A stretch of DNA of 13,570 bases from the IMG/VR virus record IMGVR_UViG_2731957955_000008. One strand, given 5' to 3'. Positions 1-13,570 of the stretch are shown here, in pieces. The position numbers were made by a program, and so were the translations under genes. How positions within the stretch are numbered: position 1 is the first letter of the stretch; each line of letters begins with the position of its first letter. The notes beneath the pieces are model-generated. The model saw nothing but the letters and a program-made list of their open reading frames with translations. It was not told the origin of the DNA and searched no databases. The DNA comes from a virus. Taxonomy: Duplodnaviria; Heunggongvirae; Uroviricota; Caudoviricetes.

Positions 1-20
1 GAAACATAATAATTGTTGTT

Positions 21-893
21 TTGTCAATATTAATTCTTTTTATTACTCCGTTTGTAGCAAAAAATCTAAGCAGTGACAATATAAAATATAGTCTTAATAT
101 TATACAATACTCGCTGAATCGTCATTTGTCGACGTGGAATACCGTGTACACCAAAATAATATCAGTATTTTGGCTTGTATTACTTATCAGCTCATGCATC
201 AGCATACGTAATTACTCAAAAATATGGTTGTGTATAATACTTATTAGTATAGTGTCAGTATGCAATAATCTAATTTTATTGTATTTTATTGATCAATCCC
301 ATCCTGCATGGTACATGACAAAATTTCTTGAATTGATATCAATGATTTATATCATTTCAACACTCATGTATTATGTTTTCAGGAAATTAAATCATGCTAA
401 TCATATGGCAATTCATGATCCACTAACGAATACATACAATAGAAGATACTTTATTGACTCATTGAAGAATATATCAAAACACCATGATTTCTCAGTAATA
501 ATGTTAGATATTGACAATTTCAAAAGCATCAATGACAAATGGGGGCATCATATGGGTGATCAAGTCATAGTAATGGTTACCAGAATAATAAAAAAATCTA
601 TCAGGAAAGAGGATATATTAGGGCGCTTAGGCGGTGAGGAGTTCGGTATTATCATTAAAGGTAATACTCAAAAGCTCTTGCTATCAATTGCAGAGCGAAT
701 CAGAAAAAACATTGAAGAGCAATGCTCGGAAAAATTATTATCGCATGGACCTGAGAAAATAACTGTCAGTATTGGTTGCTTTACTTCAAAAGAGAATAAT
801 CTCAGTCCATCTGAAATGTTAGTCAATGCCGATAAAGCGTTATATCAAGCCAAAAGAACCGGAAAAAACAAGGTGATAACTCACTCAAAATAA
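21..893 (+). CDS. Membrane-anchored GGDEF-domain diguanylate cyclase (putative c-di-GMP synthase); phage cargo (moron) gene
   Basis: Translation shows about four hydrophobic helices in the first ~125 aa, then a complete GGDEF domain: DPLTNTYNRRYF, DIDNFKSINDKWGHHMGD, an RKED I-site five residues before GGEEF (nt ~630-644), and ADKALYQAKRTGKNKV. The ORF track starts at a TTG (21), but the frame is open back to nt 3, so the true start may lie upstream of the window. The region is strongly AT-rich compared with the tail genes and is convergent with tfa. Confidence 0.85.
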   Translation: MSILILFITPFVAKNLSSDNIKYSLNIIQYSLNRHLSTWNTVYTKIISVFWLVLLISSCISIRNYSKIWLCIILISIVSVCNNLILLYFIDQSHPAWYMTKFLELISMIYIISTLMYYVFRKLNHANHMAIHDPLTNTYNRRYFIDSLKNISKHHDFSVIMLDIDNFKSINDKWGHHMGDQVIVMVTRIIKKSIRKEDILGRLGGEEFGIIIKGNTQKLLLSIAERIRKNIEEQCSEKLLSHGPEKITVSIGCFTSKENNLSPSEMLVNADKALYQAKRTGKNKVITHSK

Positions 894-922
894 ACACCTT
901 TTTAAAATACAGCCCCAATAAA

Positions 923-955
923 CTGCAGAATATTATTCCATATAATATCCTGCAG
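923..955. terminator. AT-rich inverted repeat (13-bp arms, 1 mismatch, 7-nt loop) between the convergent GGDEF gene and tfa; possible bidirectional terminator
   Basis: ctgcagaatatta (923-935), loop ttccata, taatatcctgcag (943-955), read directly from the sequence. It sits in the 73-nt gap between two convergent stop codons. The flanking T-tracts are weak. Confidence 0.3.
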
Positions 956-966
956 TTCGTAATGCA

Positions 967-1551
967 CTATTCGATAATGGGTACTGTTGGCCATTCAATA
1001 TCCGGTGCAGTTGTTGTATTAACACGGTTCAGCAACACCCGATACTTCTTCCAGGCTTCCAGCAACGAGGTTTCTTCCTCCGTTGCAATTTCCAGATCTG
1101 CAGCATCCTGAAGCGGCGCAATATGCTCACTGGCTACCTGCATCAGGCTGTTTTTTGTTTCTTCCGCCTCCCGGATCCGGAACAGTTTTTCTGCTTCTGC
1201 ATCTTTCACCCAGGCTGTGCCGTTCCACTTCTGATATTCCCCTCCCGGCGACAACCAGGTAACATTTTCCGGTAACGGACCGAGTTCAGAAATAAATAAC
1301 GCGTCGCCGGAAGCCACGTCATAAACCGTTTTACCCCGATGGTCTTCAACGAGATGCCACGATGCCTCATCACTGTTGAAAACAGCCACGAAGCCTGCCG
1401 GAATATCCGGCGGTGCAATATCGGTACTGTTTGCTGGCAGACCTGTATGAGACGGAATATATGCATCACCTTCACCAATAAATTCATTAGTTCCGGCCAG
1501 CAGATTATAAATTTTTATGGTCCGTGGTTGTTCACTCATTCTGAATGCCAT
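967..1551 (-). CDS. tfa: Tail fibre assembly protein (lambda Tfa family)
   Basis: 194-aa ORF beginning [33 protein letters not shown], matching lambda Tfa in length and N-terminus as I recall it. Its ATG overlaps the stf stop as TAATG (1549-1553), indicating translational coupling. Confidence 0.95.
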
Positions 1552-4500
1552 TATGCAAGCCTCACAATATAGTTAAATGCGATGTTTTTGACGGTGTTTT
1601 CCGCGTTACCCGCAGCGTTAACGGTGATGGTATGTCCATGTGAGCCAATCGCAACGGAGTGCGTATGAGCACCAATACCGACAGTATGTGCATGTGCGCC
1701 TGCGCTTGCAGCAGTGCCGGACAGCGAGTGGGTATGAGCACCATCTGATGATGTCTTCCCTGCATTACGAGTCTGGCCACTACCGCTTGTTGTGCTCATA
1801 ATCCCCGCGCTTAGATTTGAAATCGCAGTATAACCATTAGGAAAAATGCTCGTGTTCGTGCCACCAAATGCACCGGAACTCTTGTGTTGGTGCGCACCGG
1901 CACTATTTGCTGTCCCGCTAATACTATGGGTATGTGCACCAGTGTTATTCGTGGATTTAGTGCCGTAATCAAAAGATGATGTGGTTTTCGTCCCCAAATC
2001 CGTACTGGATGCGCTGGCGCTGTGGGTATGCGATTTAATGCCATCCTGTTCCTGAGACAATACGGCACGACCACTGGCGGGCTTGCCCTTAATCGTCCAG
2101 CCACGCATATCAGGGATCACGCCTGACGGATAAGCGGCTGCAAGTTTCGGGTAAGCAGATTTGTCAAAAGTCTGCCCCTGCATCAGGGCATAACCAGACG
2201 GAACGGTATCTGATGGCCACGGGATTGGTGCACCGACTGGATAAAACTCTGCAGGAGGATGAGCCGAGGTGTAAAGCTGCGCCCACGGCGACCAGTTTGC
2301 GTCGGTCATATCCCGTCGTGAACGAATAAATGCCGGAGCATGAGCACCGCTTGTACCACTCCAGCCGATGAGTAACTCACCTTCGCCAACGGCTGTCATC
2401 CCTTTCAGGTGAATGATATTTCCATACGCTGTTGGATATCCGTTGTTATACACCTCGTATAACTCAAGACCTGCTGCCCCCTGCGTATTGTCTGTCAGCG
2501 CGGTTACCCGACCTTTTGAAGCCAGATTAACTGATGATACTGCTGTTCCACCTGACGGTAACGCCCCGATCTCTGATGCCGTTGGCTTATTTCTGGAGTT
2601 ATAGTCCCTTCGCCAGCCAGGTGAATAATCTGTTCCGTGATTAATATAGGTAAACTGGGCGTTAGTTGTTCCACCACCAGTGGAGGTGGTCGGTGTGGTA
2701 ATGCGGATCGTCATCGCTGACTTTATCCCCATTACTTCAATGACAGCTCCGGCGAGATGAATATTACCGCAGTCAGTATCAGTAATGATTTTATTATTGC
2801 CATAAGACCAGGACCCCTTGCACATCCAGTAGGGATGGTTAAATGCTCCCTGAGAATCCAGCCACTCGATAAACTGTGCAGTCGTCCAGTTTCCTGTTGT
2901 TGTGCTTACTGACCCACCGAAGGCACGGCAGGCACCAATATTTTTCGTAAAGGTGTCTTTGCCAGGGATATCCGCACCGTTCTGATCTTTCTGCAGACGT
3001 TTCTCAGCATTGTCATTGGCTGCTTTTACTGCCTTTGGCGTTGCCGCCAGCGTTTCAGACGTGCTGTTGGTCGCGCTGCTTAACTGGATTATCCCTTTCT
3101 GTGCTGTCGTTGCATCCTGTGCGGTGTATTTCCCGTTAGCCAGGTCATACGCGGCCTTAACGGCTTTTGGCGTTGCCGCCTGTGACTCGGAAGTGCTGTT
3201 GGTCGCACTACTGAGCTGGACTATCCCCTTTTTCGTCGTGCTCGCATCCTCAAGCGCCACGGCGGATGCAATATCCTCTGCCCGTTTTGCCGCTGTCTCG
3301 GCGCGCGTTGCCGCGGTTTCTGCCGTACTTTTGCTCTGTGCTGCCGCTGTCGCACTGCCAGCAGCCTCTGTCGCCTTCGTGGATGCTGTCGTGGCGCTGC
3401 CCTTCGCTGCTGACGCCTGTCTGGTCGCCTCATCTTTTGAAGCTGACGCCGATGATGCCGATGAAGCCGCCGAACTGGCGGACGATGCGGCAGCCGTTTT
3501 TGAGGATTCTGCGCTGGTTTCCGACGCTTTCGCGTTCGTCTCGGATGTCTTCGCTGCGGAAGCAGACCTCGCTGCTGCACTGGCCTGTTCAGTGGCTTCG
3601 CCAGCCTTCGTTGTGGCTGTTGAAGCAGACGAGGCGGCACTTTCTGCCGACTTTCCGGCAGCGGTGGCACTGGCTGAGGCCTGCCCGGCACTTGTTGAGG
3701 CGGCACTGGCAGATGATGCAGCCGCTGTTTTTGAGCCTGCCGCAGCTGAGGCACTCTGTCCCGCTGCCGTTTCAGAAGACCTGGCGTTCGTCTCAGACGT
3801 CTTTGCCGCCTTCGCGGAATTTCCTGCCGCCGTTGCCGAGGAAGCGGCACTACTGGCGCTTGATGATGCGTTCGTTTCTGATGATTTCGCTGCCTCTTTT
3901 GAGGCCGCCGCATCCCGGGCTGAGGTGGCAGCTTCTGACGCCTTTGTGGTCGCTGCGGATGCAGAAGTGGCTGTAGATTTTTGTGACGCTGCCGCATTCG
4001 TTTCTGACGTTTTCGCCGCACCGGCACTGGTAGCTGCCGCGCTTTTTGAGGACTCTGCAGCGGCAGCACTTTTTGATGCTTCAGTAGCCTTTGTTGATGC
4101 CGTTCCTGCGCTGGAAGACGCTGACTGAGCCGACGTCGCGGCCTGCCCGGCTGATGTGCTGGCTGCGCGTGCTGAGCCTGCAGCATCAGTCGCATGGGTT
4201 GCCGCCTCACGTGCTGATGTGCCGGCATCGCTGGCTGACTTCTTCGCGGCTGCCGTGTTCTGTGCCACCGCGGACGCGTTACGCGCCACCTCTTCCACCA
4301 TCAGTTCAAAACGGCGCAGTGCCTCAGGACGGGCATCATCCTCCGTCATGGCACCGAGAAAATCATTCAGCGTACCGGGTCGGGAATCTTCATACACGGT
4401 GATGGTCCCGGCATGTGACGGCGGGAATCCCTCCACCAACAGAATAACGCTGTACTGCCCGTACTCAACGTCCATGCTGTAACGCCCGGCTTCATCCGGA

Positions 4501-4625
4501 TTTTCTGAGGCCAGCGTGTTCACCACCACCGTGGTGCTGTTACGTTTTGCTTTCAGCTGGATTGTGCAGTTCTGTACCGGTTTTCCTGTGCCGTCTTTCA
4601 GTACACCTGAAATCTTTACTGCCAT
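1551..4625 (-). CDS. stf: Side tail fibre protein (lambda Stf family), intact, long mosaic form of ~1024 aa
   Basis: N-terminus [26 protein letters not shown] is Stf-like. It is followed by a long Ala/Ser/Thr-rich repeat region with three KTSETNA units, two tandem fibre-repeat motifs ([26 protein letters not shown] and [26 protein letters not shown]), a Cys/Trp-containing central domain, and a C-terminal His-box region ending [12 protein letters not shown] place the start at the ATG at 4623-4625, preceded by GGGGTG; the ORF track begins at an in-frame GTG two codons upstream (4631). Confidence 0.93.
3038..3250 (-). repeat. Imperfect direct DNA repeat (~85-95 bp units, ~130 bp apart) inside stf, encoding the two tandem fibre-repeat motifs
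   Basis: Unit 1 (~3038-3125) and unit 2 (~3168-3250) share long near-identical runs, e.g. ttggcgttgccgcc and gtgctgttggtcgc(g/a)ct(g/a)ct(t/g)a(a/g)ctgga(t/c)tatccc. This was read directly from the sequence. Confidence 0.7.
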
Positions 4626-4634
4626 ATTCACCCC

Positions 4635-4663
4635 ACAAAAAAGCCCGCCTGAACCGGCGGGCT
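4635..4663 (-). terminator. Rho-independent terminator downstream of lom, immediately upstream of stf
   Basis: On the minus strand there is a perfect 8-bp GC-rich stem (agcccgcc / ggcgggct, + coordinates 4642-4649 and 4656-4663) with a 6-nt loop, followed by TTTTTGT. The T-tract runs into the stf ribosome-binding site. Confidence 0.55.
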
Positions 4664-4689
4664 GTCATAACACTGTGTTACCTGGCTAA

Positions 4690-5289
4690 TCAGAATTTAT
4701 AACCGACACCCACGATGAAACCGTCAGTGCGCCAGTCACCACTGCCGGAGCCTTCATAAGCAATATCAATGGCCACGGATTCGGTCGGGTTAAACTGCAC
4801 GCCAGCCCCCCACGCCAGAGACGTGTTGCTGTGGCGACCGTCATCACTTCCGGTCAGCACATCGTGCTTTTTCCCCTTGTTGTCAGTTACGCGAAGATAA
4901 TCCCCGGAGAAAGTCGACACACGGCTGTAAGCTACACCCGCCATCGCATACGCGCTGAACCATTCATTTACGCGCACAGACGGCCCCGCCATTACGCTGA
5001 ACCAGCGGTTACGCACGGAATCTTCATGCCAGCGGGTATCGCTGTAACGGGTCAGCTGGCGATTCTTGTCTCCTGCATAGCTGAATGACGTCACCAGCCC
5101 CAGTGTGTCCGTAAACTCATAACGGTATTTCACGTTAATCCCGTTCAGATCATCACTGCCGGGGACGTTCGTCGAGGCATGAAGATACCCCGCGCTCAGC
5201 GTGGACTGATGTTCAGACGCCCATGCAGGCGCACCGGATACGGCCAGACAAATGGCTGCGGACAAAATTGCTGCACAAACTTTACGCAT
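4690..5289 (-). CDS. lom: Lom outer-membrane protein (Ail/Lom beta-barrel family), lysogenic-conversion moron
   Basis: 199-aa ORF MRKVCAAILSAAICLAVSGAPAWASEHQSTLSAGYLHAS with a signal peptide, alternating amphipathic strands and a C-terminal GVGYKF typical of outer-membrane barrels. It sits between J and stf exactly as in lambda and is bracketed by hairpins on both sides. Confidence 0.95.
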   Translation of the reverse strand: MRKVCAAILSAAICLAVSGAPAWASEHQSTLSAGYLHASTNVPGSDDLNGINVKYRYEFTDTLGLVTSFSYAGDKNRQLTRYSDTRWHEDSVRNRWFSVMAGPSVRVNEWFSAYAMAGVAYSRVSTFSGDYLRVTDNKGKKHDVLTGSDDGRHSNTSLAWGAGVQFNPTESVAIDIAYEGSGSGDWRTDGFIVGVGYKF

Positions 5290-5313
5290 AATTACCTCTC
5301 GCTTTTCTGCAAT

Positions 5314-5337
5314 AAAAAAGGCGTCATTCCTGACGCC
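5314..5337 (-). terminator. Terminator-like hairpin between J stop and lom start
   Basis: 7-bp stem ggcgtca / tgacgcc (5320-5326 and 5331-5337) with loop ttcc, followed on the minus strand by TTTTTT (complement of 5314-5319). A lom SD (gagagg) lies just downstream on the minus strand. Confidence 0.5.
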
Positions 5338-5359
5338 CTTTATTGGGGTTATAAATATT

Positions 5360-8300
5360 TCAACGAATACTGATGCCGGAAGCGGCTTTTTTGGTCACAA
5401 TCACCGTACAGTCGGTGATATTGCCTGCCCCCTGATTGCCTTTCTGGAAAATCTTAAACTCCAGAGTGACGCTTCCCCTGCCACTCGGCATATCAATAAC
5501 TGCACTGTAACTACCGGGAATGGCCCCTTTAGTTTCTCTGGATGCGATTAATACGCCGTTTTTGCGAACTTCAAAACCATAACCCGTGTATCGCGTGCCT
5601 CCTGGGTTATTTCCGCTCCCCGGATCGTCATACGCTATACCGTTAAAAATAATGGGCGGAATAATAATCTGGCGGTCAAAGTTATGATCATCGCTGATGG
5701 TGACTGTAACCGTACCGTTTGGTGTTTCCGTGTTACCCCACGTACCGACTTTTTTCGGGAAGGCTTTTGATACAGCTTTAACGAAATCTCCTCTGACCTG
5801 GGTCGCCTCCAGCATGCCCTTAATCGTACAGTTCTGGTTAATCGTGACATTGTTGAGCGTTCCTGAGTTCGCATTCACACTGCCACTGATATCCGCATTT
5901 TTCGCCGTCAGTCTCCCGTCTGATGTCAGGGAAAATGCCGGAGGATTACCGCCGCTGGTAATGGTGGGGGCCGTCAGGCGTTTCAGGAACACTTCATTCA
6001 TGAATATCTGATCGCCCTGACCAACAAACATCGGCTTTGTGTTGCCATTCGCAGGATTAATCATCGCAATCCTGTCTGCTGCCAGCAGCACCTGACTCTG
6101 CATGCCGTCAGGGGTGTTCTCAATACCGGCACCGATACCCGCAATATAAAGGCGTCCGTCCTGCATCTGCTGCAGCTTCACTGCCCACATGCTGTTCAGG
6201 TTATTATTTGTATCAACCTGAACCTTCTGTATCTGCTGGATCGCTGCACTCTGGTCTTCCAGTTTCTTATTGACGGTCTGTGTTATTTCATTGCTGACAT
6301 CCGTTATGGACGTCCTGATTTCAGTCAGGTCAGGCGCAAGCTGACCGTTATCAATCTGCGTCCACAGCTCCTGAGCCAGATGGGTTTTCCCTATCTCGCC
6401 TTTGAAAAAATCCAGATAGCCTGATGCATCATCACTCGGCTGACCGACAGCCTCCACGAATGCCGATTTGCCAACGGTGTTCACACTGCGAACGTAAAAA
6501 TAATAATCATGGCCCGGTTTGATATTGATACTGGCGGCTATCCAGTACAGTGCCGTACCAAGATAACGCGCGCTGGTTTCAACCTGCCTGATATCCGCAA
6601 TCCGTTTTTCCGAGAACCAGAACTCAAACTGTACCGTCGGGTCATAAACCGCAAGATGCGGCGTGGCGGTTATCTGAAAATAGCCCGGCGTCAGCTCAAT
6701 CCGCGACGGCGCTGCCGGTGCGGCAATCCGGAACGATACCGACGCCGGATCGCCCTGCTGCCCCCACGCATTTACTGCCCGGACTGTCAGCCTGTAGTTC
6801 CCCAGAGCCAGTTGTGTGAAGCGGTAAGTGGTTTCCGTCGTCCGGGCCGTGCTGACCAGCCGCTCACGGCCGTCATCCGCTGCCACGGTCAGGCGAAGCA
6901 GGAAGCTCACGCCCTTCACCACCTTCGGCGTGTCCCAGCGCGCCAGCACCTGGTATTCCCCGCTGTCTGCGGTGACTTCTGCGGTCAGGTGCTGCACCGC
7001 TGGCGGCGTGACACCATTTACCGTGCCGCTCTGGTCGCCGTCAAAGTGCGCCCCGTTATCCACGATGGCCTCTTTTTCCGGTACATGCTGCACGGCGGTG
7101 ATGGCATACGTGCCGTCGTCGTTCTCACGGATACTCACGCAGCGGAACAGGCGCTGGCGCAACGTCGGCAGCTTCAGCCCCCATACGCTGTATTCAGCAA
7201 CGCCGTCAGGAACACGGCTCACTTTCACCTTCACGCCGTCGGTGACGGACTGAACCTCCACGCTGACCGGATTACCACTTCCGTCAACCAGGCTTATCAG
7301 CGTGGTACCGGAGGATGGCAGCGTGATTTCACGGTCGAGCGTCAGCGTCCGGGTCTGGCTGTTCACCGCCAGCACGCGCCCGCCGGTGCGGATACCGGCA
7401 TAGTCATCATCGCAGATTTCAATGACATCGCCCGGTACATGGCGAAGCCCTTCGGCACCCACGCTGAAGTCCACGGTCTGCGTTTCCAGCAGTTCTGTTT
7501 TAATCAGCCACAGCCCGGCGCGGTGTGCCTGCCCCCGGCTGGTACAGCCAAAAGCATCCATCTTCGTGACGTTACGACCGTAACGGGCAATGGCCTGCGT
7601 GTCCTCCACAAGCTCTGTCGCCGTCTCCCAGCCGTTATTCGGGTCAATCCAGTTCACCTCAACGGCATTATGGCGGTCCTTCAGGGCGCTGAAGCTGTAG
7701 CGGAACGGCGCACCATCATCCGGCATCACCACATTACTGCGGTTATAGGTCCACACCTTATCCGACGGTCGGTCCTGCACGAACGTCAGCGTCTGCCCGT
7801 TCCATACCGGCATACAGCGCATCGCAGAGCAGAAATCACTGAGCACATCCCACGCCTTACGCTGTGTGGTCAGCCAGGCATTACAGGTGATGCGCGGCTC
7901 CGTGCCGCCAAAGCCGTCCGGCACTGACTGGTCGCAGTACTGGCCGATAAGATACAGCGCCCATTTATCCACATCCACCGCACCAAGACGTTTCCCCATG
8001 CCGTAGCGCGGATGGGTCAGCATATCCCACAGACACCAGGCCGNGTTGTTGCTGTATGCCGGTTTAAACGTTCCGTCCCAGATACCGCTGTATTGCCGCG
8101 TCTGCGGGTTATAATTCGACGGCACCTGCAGAATACGCCCGCGCAGATGATAATTACGGCTCACCTGCTGGCTGCCGAACTGCTCCGAGTCCACCTGCAC
8201 GCCGACCAGTGCCGTGTTCGGGTAGCACTGTTTCACATCGATAATTTCGGTGTATGACGACCAGAGCGTTTTGTTCTGCAGCTGGTCTGTGGTGCTGTCC

Positions 8301-8857
8301 GGCGTCATCCTGCGCATCCGGATATTAAACGGGCGCGGCGGCAGGTTATCCACCACCACCGAGGCCAGATACTGTGAAGTGGTTTTACCCTTAATGGTGA
8401 TGTCTTTTTCCGTCACCCAGCCACCGTTACGTTGTATCTGAACCAGCAGGCGGACTTCCGATGGATTCCTGTCCCCCTTTGAGGTGGTTTCCACCAGTGC
8501 CTGCACGCCGAAAGTAAAACGCAGACGGTCAATGTTTGCCGACGTGATGGTCCGGGTGATCGGCGTGTCATATTTCACTTCTGTACCGAGCACCGTCTCG
8601 GAGCCGGAGGATTCAAATCCCTCCGGCGGTGTCTGCTCCTGCTCACCGGCCCGGAACACCACCGTGACGCCGGATATATTGGTATTCCCCTCACTGTCCA
8701 GCACCGGCGTACTGTTCAGCAGCACGCTTTTTAATCCATCCACCGGACCTTCAACCGGCCCTTCGCTGATGGCATCGATCACACTCAGCAGCTGCGTGGA
8801 CTTCAGGTTNTCNTTCGCTTCGCGCGGGGTATGCCCCTTACTGCTGCCTTTACCCAT
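5360..8857 (-). CDS. J: Tail tip / host-specificity protein J (central tail fibre)
   Basis: 1165-aa ORF beginning [14 protein letters not shown], in the expected position after I and before lom. Lambda J is 1132 aa as I recall, so this is a length variant. Several X residues come from N bases (e.g. 8043, 8810, 8813). Confidence 0.95.
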
Positions 8858-8917: not shown

Positions 8918-9589
8918 TCAGCGACCAATCACCACAACCTGACCACCGTCCCCTTCGTCTGCCGTGCTGATCTCCTGAGAAACCACGCGTGACCCCACGC
9001 GCATTTCNCCGTACAGAACNGGCAGAACATTGCCCTGGGCAACCATGTTATCCAGTGAGGAGAAATAGGTGTTCTGNTTNCCGTTATCCGTTGTCTGTGT
9101 ACGGGGAGTTCTGGCTTTCGGTGCCAGCATCTGCGCCACACCACCGAGCACCATACTGGCACCGAGAGAAAACAGGATGCCGGTCATACCACCGGCCCCA
9201 ATGGCTGCCCCCCATGCTGCAAGGGTGGCTCCGGCGGTAAAGAATGATCCGGCAATGGCGGCAGCCCCCAGGACAATCTGGAATACGCCACCTGACTTGG
9301 CCCCGGCGACTCTGGGAACAATATGAATCACAGCGCCATCAGGCAGAGTCTCATGTAACTGCGCCGTTAACCCGGACGTGCTGACGTCCCGCCCGGCAAT
9401 CCGTACCTGATACCAGCCGTCGCTCAGTTTCTGACGAAACNCCGGGAGCTGTGTGGCCAGTGCNCGGATGGCTTCAGCCCCCGTTTTCACACGAAGGTCG
9501 ATGCGGCGGCCAAATCGTTGCAAATCCCCGTAAAGGCAGATGCGCGCCATGCCCGGTGACGCCAGAGGGAGTGTGTGCGTCGCTGCCAT
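8918..9589 (-). CDS. I: Tail tip assembly protein I
   Basis: 223-aa ORF MAATHTLPLASPGMARICLYGDLQRFGRRIDLRVKTGAEAI with a Gly/Ala-rich hydrophobic middle and a C-terminus ending QVVVIGR. Its length and 103-nt overlap with the end of K match the lambda arrangement as I recall it. Confidence 0.93.
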   Translation of the reverse strand: MAATHTLPLASPGMARICLYGDLQRFGRRIDLRVKTGAEAIXALATQLPXFRQKLSDGWYQVRIAGRDVSTSGLTAQLHETLPDGAVIHIVPRVAGAKSGGVFQIVLGAAAIAGSFFTAGATLAAWGAAIGAGGMTGILFSLGASMVLGGVAQMLAPKARTPRTQTTDNXXQNTYFSSLDNMVAQGNVLXVLYXEMRVGSRVVSQEISTADEGDGGQVVVIGR

Positions 9590-10230
9590 TTGTCGGTATA
9601 CCTCTCTCGTTTGCTCAGTTGTTCAGGAATATGGTGCAGCAGCTCGCCATCACCACAGTAAATGGCGGCATGATTCGGCACCGATGAACCAAAACAGCAC
9701 AGCAGCACATCGCCCGGCTGCGCCGCTGACAACGGCACCTGATACAGCCCTGTGGCCTCCAGATTATCCAGATAGAGATTCTGACCGTGACGCCACCAGT
9801 TATCCCCGCGATGAAAATCCGGCATCTCAATTCCCGCCAGATGGTAAGCGTCCCGGAACAGCGTGTAACAGTCCGTTACCCCGTGCTCAAAGCGCCGCCC
9901 GGTGAGATGCGGCACACAGCGGAATTTATGAATCGCCACCCGGCAGACCAGCCACCACGGCAAATCACTCTGTACCTGCAGCCGCCGGTCGGCCTCACTC
10001 AGCCAGGGCAGACCACCGGGGTGGCTGTGGACCAGCGCCACAATCTCTCCCTGCATTTCTGCACTCAGCCAGTCCTCCGGCGACATCCGGAAATACTCCT
10101 CCGGCTCACCGGAGATATTCACNCAGGGAAAATATCTTTCCTCCTCCGGCGTTCTCACCACGAAGCCGCACGACTCCGCTGGCGCACATCGCCGGGCGTG
10201 CGCCAGAATCGCTGATTCTGTCTCTGTCAT
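9487..10230 (-). CDS. K: Tail tip assembly protein K (N-terminal MPN/JAMM metalloprotease-like domain plus C-terminal NlpC/P60-like domain)
   Basis: 247-aa ORF beginning MTETESAILAHARRCAPAESCGFVV. It contains a full JAMM signature (HSHPGGLPWLSEAD, i.e. HxHx7Sx2D, with a candidate upstream Glu in PAESCGFVV) and an NlpC/P60-like Cys/His region (GVTDCYTLFRDAYH, NHAAIY, HHI). The ATG at 10228-10230 lies 5 nt after the L stop. An internal ATG at 10084-10086 would give the classical 199-aa lambda K. Confidence 0.9.
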   Translation of the reverse strand: MTETESAILAHARRCAPAESCGFVVRTPEEERYFPXVNISGEPEEYFRMSPEDWLSAEMQGEIVALVHSHPGGLPWLSEADRRLQVQSDLPWWLVCRVAIHKFRCVPHLTGRRFEHGVTDCYTLFRDAYHLAGIEMPDFHRGDNWWRHGQNLYLDNLEATGLYQVPLSAAQPGDVLLCCFGSSVPNHAAIYCGDGELLHHIPEQLSKRERYTDKWQRRTHSLWRHRAWRASAFTGICNDLAAASTFV

Positions 10231-11263: not shown

Positions 11264-11697
11264 CGTCCACCTCCGGAGAACAGGCCACCATCACGCATCT
11301 GTGTCTGAATTTCATCACGGGCACCCTTGCGGGCCATGTCATACACCGCCTTCAGAGCAGCCGGACCTATCTGCCCGTTCGTGCCGTCGTTGTTAATCAC
11401 CACATGGTTATTCTGCTCAAACGTCCCGGACGCCTGCGACCGGCTGTCTGCCATGCTGCCCGGTGTACCGACATAACCGCCGGTGGCATAGCCGCGCATC
11501 AGCCGGTAAAGATTCCCCACGCCAATCCGGCTGGTTGCCTCCTTCGTGAAGACAAACTCACCACGGTGAACAATCCCCGCTGGCTCATATTTGCCGCCGG
11601 TTCCCGTAAATCCTCCGGTTGCAAAATGGAATTTCGCCGCAGCGGCCTGAATGGCTGTACCGCCTGACGCGGATGCGCCGCCACCAACAGCGTTCCT
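11260..11697 (-). CDS. H: Tape measure protein H, C-terminal segment (second frame of a disrupted H gene)
   Basis: This frame is open from just after a TGA at 11698-11700 down to the stop at 11260. By my own translation it encodes AVGGGASASGGTAIQAAAAKFHFATGGFTGTGGKYEPAGIVHRGEFVFTKEATSRIGVGNLYRLMRGYATGGYVGTP, continuing to the ORF-track ending DGGLFSGGGR, a Gly-rich tape-measure C-terminus. Confidence 0.8.
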   Translation of the reverse strand, partial: RNAVGGGASASGGTAIQAAAAKFHFATGGFTGTGGKYEPAGIVHRGEFVFTKEATSRIGVGNLYRLMRGYATGGYVGTPGSMADSRSQASGTFEQNNHVVINNDGTNGQIGPAALKAVYDMARKGARDEIQTQMRDGGLFSGGGR

Positions 11698-13489: not shown

Positions 13490-13570
13490 ACCGGACTCCT
13501 CCTGCGATCCCTTCTGATACTGTCATCAGCATTACGTCATCCTCCGTCATGTCCGCCACATCCGGGGAAG
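13482..13570 (-). CDS. T: 3' end of the T frame of the G-T tail assembly chaperone (partial, runs off the window)
   Basis: By my own translation the minus-strand frame ending in TGA at 13482-13484 is open to the window edge and reads ...SPDVADMTEDDVMLMTVSEGIAGGVRYG*. Its stop overlaps the H start (ATGGCTGA), and an AGGAGG SD for H lies within it. Confidence 0.6.
   Translation of the reverse strand, partial: SPDVADMTEDDVMLMTVSEGIAGGVRYG

Follow-up and report, generated by a model that had tools for sequence, protein, structure and literature searches.

The window analyzed here, a stretch of 13,570 nucleotides taken as a whole, opens within a reading frame on the plus strand (positions 3 to 893) that, from the window edge on, contains no stop codon before the TAA at positions 891 to 893. 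This frame is a real coding sequence, namely, the last two thirds of dgcX, and the feature is already known: it encodes DgcX, the c-di-GMP synthase of the 2011 Escherichia coli O104:H4 outbreak strain, which was described and named by Richter et al. in 2014 (PMC4287979). The features of the locus are as follows.

Positions 1 to 893, plus strand: 3' two thirds of dgcX (codons 147 to 443 and the stop codon), an open frame from the window edge
Positions 3 to 383, plus strand: C-terminal half of MASE4, an integral-membrane sensor domain (residues 148 to 274 of the full-length protein; PF17158)
Positions 408 to 872, plus strand: GGDEF catalytic domain (residues 283 to 437; PF00990 and TIGR00254)
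Positions 603 to 614, plus strand: I-site RKED (residues 348 to 351), aligning with the RAID I-site of PleD, five residues upstream of GGEEF
Positions 630 to 644, plus strand: A-site motif GGEEF (residues 357 to 361), with E359 and E360 mutated in PMC10459773
Positions 921 to 957, no single strand: inverted repeat of 37 nt in the spacer where dgcX and tfa converge, forming a terminator-like hairpin on both strands
Positions 967 to 1551, minus strand: tail fiber assembly gene tfa (194 amino acids), 93% identical to K-12 TfaR over 191 amino acids
Positions 1551 to 4631, minus strand: side tail fiber gene stf, from the open reading frame and the RefSeq annotation of the identical O104:H4 stretch
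Positions 4690 to 5289, minus strand: lom, from the open reading frame and the RefSeq annotation of the identical O104:H4 stretch
Positions 5360 to 8857, minus strand: tail tip gene J, from the open reading frame and the RefSeq annotation of the O104:H4 stretch

Positions 1 to 8043 of the window are 100% identical to O104:H4, and the first 1,000 nucleotides are matched with 100% identity in fifteen genomes of the O104:H4 lineage among the matches listed, most of them labelled O104:H4. Past base 8043, the two sequences diverge: we counted 50 mismatches (99.6% identity) between positions 8044 and 11691; at about position 11691, an indel of 332 nt distinguishes the window from the tape-measure gene of O104:H4, and the remainder up to position 13570 is 98.7% identical. 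A 100% match to the whole window was not found among the complete E. coli genomes. Because the window differs from O104:H4 in this distal part, its upstream context was inferred from a reference, the genome of E. coli O104:H4 2011C-3493, in which we refer to the locus on the ybhB-dgcX side as L001 and to that on the int-ybhC side as L002. Both the 5' third of dgcX and the att site lie outside the window and were taken from this reference, which is identical over the adjoining stretch.

Extension into the reference placed the true start of dgcX at an ATG codon 439 nt upstream of window base 1, with the window opening in codon 147. The full-length protein has 443 amino acids (WP_000586343.1, annotated in O104:H4 as "sensor domain-containing diguanylate cyclase"), the window part corresponding to residues 147 to 443, and in this numbering E359 and E360 match the residues of the published mutants (PMC10459773). 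The original prediction had referred to a protein of 290 amino acids. Since the window edge cuts the gene and removes its 5' third, neither that length nor the start at TTG 21 is right: the listed frame at 21 to 893 merely begins at the first possible start codon past the edge, and TTG 21 is an internal codon of the identical O104:H4 gene. The GGDEF domain, in contrast, is indeed complete, as had been claimed, with PF00990 matched over positions 1 to 161 of 161.

This profile match was highly significant for the window part (E = 4e-45, with a score of 154 bits where the cut-off is 23.8), as well as for residues 283 to 437 of the full protein, where it again covered the full profile (E = 1e-44), and TIGR00254 scored 164 bits against a cut-off of 37.4. 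The MASE4 domain, likewise scoring above its Pfam cut-off, was recognized by PF17158 in the window part (E = 1.5e-13) and over residues 40 to 274 of the full protein (E = 5e-36). A hydropathy scan located four hydrophobic segments in the window part (full-length residues 148 to 166, 197 to 215, 221 to 239, and 255 to 273) and about eight in the whole MASE4 domain, so that the predicted number of about four transmembrane helices is correct for the window part but not for the entire domain. The published description of DgcX likewise gives about 270 hydrophobic N-terminal residues with eight predicted helices, in a domain common to YcdT and YeaI (PMC4287979).

In an alignment to PleD (1w25), the DID, IND, GD, RxxD, GGEEF, AERIR, and YQAK motifs are conserved, and with them the metal- and guanine-binding positions and both I-site elements; R446 of PleD is a lysine in DgcX. 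The alignment thus agrees with the predicted intact GGEEF motif and the RKED motif five residues upstream, both of which could be located, and the A- and I-sites had also been reported as intact (PMC4287979). At the sequence level, DgcX has everything expected of a diguanylate cyclase that is active, inhibited by its product, and equipped with a MASE4 membrane domain for input, and its assignment as a membrane-anchored diguanylate cyclase with intact A- and I-sites is supported. The enzyme would accordingly make c-di-GMP from GTP at the GGEEF site and would be subject to product inhibition via the RKED I-site. Literature support for c-di-GMP synthesis by DgcX is genetic, phenotypes being lost in GGEAF and GGAAF mutants (PMC10459773); a published in vitro assay was not found.

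Two K-12 proteins resemble DgcX. DgcT (YcdT) has the same architecture with RxxD and GGEEF motifs and shares 37% identity with DgcX across 408 residues, but it is encoded in the core chromosome, beside pgaABCD, and ycdT is weakly expressed (PMC4287979), whereas dgcX is highly expressed. CdgI (YeaI) is, like DgcX, a MASE4-GGDEF protein, and it is again core chromosomal in contrast to the phage-borne, AT-rich dgcX.

We located the lambda att core GCTTTTTTATACTAA at L001 18907 to 18921, between ybhB and dgcX, and a second copy on the same strand at L002 24410 to 24424, between int and ybhC. These two cores bound a prophage of about 44.6 kb that contains dgcX and has a lambda-like gene order: dgcX, tfa, stf, lom, J, and further on portal, terminase, lysis genes, and Q, followed by P, O, the cI region, bet/exo, xis, and int. 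The first core is separated from dgcX by approximately 400 nt that are 94 to 97% identical to the attP-proximal region of HK106 and HK97, in which the sib site is annotated, and 89% identical to lambda attP, with the tI/sib hairpin lying at L001 19066 to 19103. In genomes whose site is empty, similarity to the junction query is limited to bases 1 to 105, base 105 being the last base of the core. Since att cores, P arm, and empty-site junctions flank dgcX, its placement inside a lambda-like prophage is supported; it occupies the b-region slot, with attR (P-O-B') on one side and tfa on the other. The same slot had been predicted originally, and the possibility raised with that prediction, that the gene belongs to the chromosome beyond a prophage boundary, is answered by the upstream reference, which puts dgcX within both att cores and an intact P arm with sib/tI between ybhB and dgcX. 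The papers on DgcX place the gene "adjacent to" a prophage or outside a mobile element, whereas the att analysis presented here places it inside the prophage; this location inside, and not merely beside, the prophage is the only new point of our analysis.

The large terminase gene and rusA are frameshifted in the O104:H4 prophage, which may therefore be defective. Between its lysis genes and Q, the prophage additionally contains a gene for an OmpC-like porin. The frameshifted genes and the porin gene lie outside the window, at L002 2660 to 4584, 10881 to 11242, and 9004 to 10086.

Within the prophage, dgcX belongs to a cassette that spans about 1.7 kb, has a GC content of about 30%, and extends from a conserved hairpin to the 3' end of tfa. 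As predicted, the gene is AT-rich: its GC content is 29.7%, whereas tfa has 48.5%, the remaining prophage sequence in L001 56.6%, and the flanking host DNA 52%. A three-way alignment of O104:H4, HK106, and E. coli SE11 put the left edge at about L001 19301 to 19305, immediately behind the conserved hairpin (CCGCAGCACGT...ACGTGCTGCGG and TTTTCTTT; approximately L001 19267 to 19300; -24 kcal/mol, z = -5.3). Collinearity of O104:H4 with HK106 extends from the core to this hairpin, from which HK106 proceeds straight to tfa; in HK106, HK97, and K-12 Rac, the hairpin is present and dgcX is absent there. SE11, which has a dgcX prophage at the Rac site, is collinear with O104:H4 exactly from the hairpin and through dgcX and tfa (97.9% identity across 2.5 kb from the hairpin on). 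Its sequence on the other side is K-12-like from uspF through ttcC (Rac attR) and for about 230 nt further, including the hairpin, so that the SE11 cassette lies about 230 nt inside Rac attR (ttcC), again inside a prophage end. The right edge is located at about window positions 976 to 988, within the last codons of tfa, which has three C-terminal codons more than the TfaR gene; in dgcX-free genomes, tfa homology starts at positions 979 to 989.

The predicted convergence of dgcX with tfa was confirmed. The two genes are separated by a 73-nt spacer that contains the hairpin at 921 to 957. Its folding energy is -16.7 kcal/mol for the plus strand (z = -6.1) and -26.3 kcal/mol for the minus strand (z = -5.4), and it is not followed by a clean T-run on the plus strand. 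The best promoter-like site, TTGACA-17-TAGTAT, was found at L001 19461 to 19489, 73 nt before the ATG; because the number of such sites in the region (13) was not above that expected from shuffled sequence (14), it is considered a candidate promoter. As far as can be read from the sequence, the properties of the cassette, that is, its position inside att, its deviant GC content, its sharp edges, and its absence from relatives, match the definition of a phage moron.

Rfam matches near dgcX were limited to two below the gathering thresholds. A partial match to the sRNA family IS009 lies on the minus strand at window positions 1010 to 1100, in the 3' part of tfa (94 bits against a gathering threshold of 117; model positions 109 to 199, ending at the end of the searched stretch). 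A weak match to CssrB, a Shigella sRNA family, lies on the minus strand at L001 19270 to 19365 and overlaps the conserved hairpin at the cassette boundary (44 bits against 76).

Among 5,426 complete E. coli genomes, 771 (14%) carry dgcX. The junction ybhB-att-P arm-dgcX is present in 589 of these 771 genomes, and the dgcX-tfa junction was found in at least 522; every dgcX match in the sampled rows overlaps an annotated tfa. In IMG/VR, 17 contigs that are prophage fragments contain the gene. In contrast, dgcX was absent from 50,697 phage records in both nucleotide and protein searches, which returned only attP and tfa flanks and distant GGDEF domains, and it was not found in the PLSDB plasmids. 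Three of the 776 dgcX places in the E. coli genome collection are on records labelled plasmids, compared to PLSDB without a match. Strain M1 (NZ_CP010180.1) has a divergent copy, with just 76% identity across the start of the gene and the 3' portion of the region upstream of it. Scanning of genome contigs yielded E. coli, one probably mis-binned metagenome-assembled genome, and one unrelated weak match, and the nearest relatives outside E. coli are those of E. albertii (52%) and Citrobacter (41 to 43%).

Prophages integrated at the sites Rac, torS/torT, and argU also harbor the cassette or variants of 51 to 85% identity, and a fifth integration site of dgcX, argW, has been reported (PMC10459773). 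The 85% variant is found between torT and tfa, in a prophage that has tail genes of the Baseplate_J type, an integrase abutting torS, and a P-arm homologue upstream of the cassette. The 51% variant lies at a Rac-type prophage end, in a 2.4-kb insert flanked by an approximately 195-nt duplication of attR-proximal sequence. The two copies of this direct duplication are located at positions 6834 to 7028 and 9435 to 9629 of the respective locus (L029), which suggests a tandem or remnant integration. The 67% variant (P0010) adjoins a C-terminal remnant of an integrase and the tRNA-Arg(TCT) gene argU, that is, the DLP12 site. At this locus (L026 8001 to 9714), the variant is followed by a hairpin equivalent to the one behind dgcX, the integrase remnant, and the tRNA gene, and the region abuts the ybcH-nfrA-nfrB operon; the NfrB protein encoded there has a c-di-GMP-binding MshEN domain. 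We also considered that this variant might represent an ancestral chromosomal locus beside nfrBA, between ybcH-nfrA-nfrB and folD, with a link to the c-di-GMP-dependent synthase NfrB, but this was ruled out by the hairpin, the integrase remnant, and the argU tRNA. The variant can be assigned to a decayed prophage at the DLP12 site, and its position next to nfrBA probably results from this decay.

Published experiments indicate what the gene does in its host. In K-12 W3110, dgcX fused to lacZ in single copy surpassed all other E. coli diguanylate cyclase genes in expression, with contributions of both RpoD and RpoS, and this expression was reported as prophage independent (PMC4287979). Overexpression of DgcX led to more cellulose in a CsgD-independent manner (Cimdins-Ahne et al. 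2023, PMC10459773), an effect that the GGEAF and GGAAF mutants had lost, and deletion of dgcX in strain Fec101 caused a minor phenotype only (PMC10459773). The original suggestion that a phage-carried c-di-GMP synthase may alter host biofilm formation agrees with these experiments (PMC4287979, PMC10459773).

Taken as an explanation of the whole, we therefore consider it very likely that DgcX is a prophage-borne moron diguanylate cyclase and that dgcX is a lysogenic-conversion gene. The cassette, with its candidate promoter and flanking hairpin, sits inside the prophage between the P-arm/sib region and the 3' end of tfa; according to the literature, dgcX would be transcribed in the lysogen independently of phage regulators; and the higher c-di-GMP level would shift the host toward matrix production (cellulose and curli/CsgD) and sessile life, which amounts to lysogenic conversion. 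In this proposal, the identity of the gene, its domains and motifs, its att position, and the edges and distribution of the cassette come from the present analysis, expression under RpoD and RpoS and the GGEEF-dependent phenotypes come from the cited papers, and a benefit to the lysogen is what we infer from them.

Several known systems come close to this arrangement. The DgcX of O104:H4 and enteroaggregative E. coli (PMC4287979, PMC10459773) is identical over the window part and has the same domains, the same A- and I-sites, and the same lambda attB locus by the tail fiber genes. Lambdoid morons, a concept derived from HK97 and HK022 (PMC3594210) and exemplified by lom and bor of lambda, are, like the dgcX cassette, units of deviant GC content that lie between conserved phage modules and are absent from close relatives at the same position; they form independent transcription units expressed in the lysogen, as the dgcX cassette may do. 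What sets dgcX apart from these precedents is that the product is a synthase of a second messenger. According to a 2023 review (PMC10333796), c-di-GMP elements known from phages are few. The GGDEF proteins of Bacillus phage SP-15 and PHROG 5594 share a phage-borne GGDEF domain with DgcX, but the similarity is below 40% identity and confined to the GGDEF part, MASE4 is lacking, and the phages and hosts are unrelated.

The occurrence of alleles of 51 to 85% identity at no fewer than four integration sites (lambda attB, Rac/ttcA, torS-torT, and argU) and with two tail architectures could also mean that a tail-fiber-linked moron family has moved among prophages and that its selected role is on the side of the phage, a possible but rather doubtful interpretation. 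In that case, surface remodelling by c-di-GMP would block superinfection or would keep lysogens in biofilms, and host virulence would not be the selected function.

Alternatively, dgcX could be host or foreign chromosomal DNA that lies beside lambdoid prophages and has been spread by specialized transduction after aberrant excision, as proposed previously (PMC4287979). The gene has always been found by prophage DNA, mostly at attB (PMC4287979), the ybhB junction is shared by 589 of 771 genomes in our survey, and dgcX is absent from all 50,697 deposited phage genomes searched, all of which would be compatible with such an origin. However, cargo of a lambda-gal type phage would abut a hybrid att site and the P arm would have been lost, whereas dgcX shows no such hallmarks: the core, the P arm, sib/tI, and the further hairpin are intact and separate it from the host by about 380 nt of phage sequence. 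This intact P arm argues against specialized transduction. Moreover, the cassette is also found inside a Rac-type attR in SE11 and, as the 85% variant, inside the P-arm homologue on the torT side, and no host gene flanks it in any of its contexts. We thus regard this origin of dgcX as unlikely.

The linkage to the tail fiber genes could further be explained if the DgcX cassette served the phage more than the host, with a c-di-GMP-dependent change or response of the cell surface excluding superinfecting phages. Across prophages that use four different att sites and have two tail types, the cassette and its variants adjoin tfa/stf, and exclusion genes such as cor and lom occupy neighboring slots in related phages. 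It is also in line with this proposal that surface polysaccharides are under the control of c-di-GMP, among them the NfrB product needed by phage N4. Nevertheless, the linkage to tfa is equally well explained by a single insertion at the genome end and subsequent travel with the recombinogenic tfa/stf module. DgcX did not match any PADLOC defence model (0 families at E ≤ 0.001), which leaves the defence or superinfection-exclusion role offered as an alternative in the original prediction without support; PHROG yielded families of unknown function, with similarity in the GGDEF domain only, and a published phage-resistance test for dgcX was not found. Exclusion as the explanation of the cassette therefore appears very unlikely. 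It is extremely improbable, finally, that DgcX is a degenerate GGDEF receptor or partner and not an enzyme, as is CdgI (YeaI) of the same MASE4-GGDEF family, which is catalytically inactive and binds c-di-GMP (PMC5635695), since the GGEEF motif is intact, the metal- and substrate-binding residues align with those of PleD, and the GGEAF and GGAAF mutants of DgcX lose their phenotypes (PMC10459773).

The moron cyclase that we favor has so far been seen in prophages. There is no dgcX phage isolate on record, and because none of the 50,697 phage records carries the gene, its packaging into viable virions and its transmission by them are to be regarded as putative. The two frameshifted genes of the O104:H4 prophage, the minor phenotype of the deletion in Fec101, the unexceptional number of promoter-like sites, and the missing T-run behind the hairpin on the dgcX strand likewise speak against the favored explanation.

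In the literature, DgcX is already a candidate determinant of virulence and biofilm formation in the 2011 outbreak strain. Our analysis adds a modest correction, in that dgcX is to be regarded as genuine prophage cargo, lying in a cassette within the att boundaries, and as part of a mobile element, the contrary of which is stated in the 2023 review (PMC10333796), and with 771 of 5,426 complete E. coli genomes it is commoner than the "few strains" reported. If dgcX phages are inducible, a strongly expressed biofilm switch would be spread by ordinary lysogeny.
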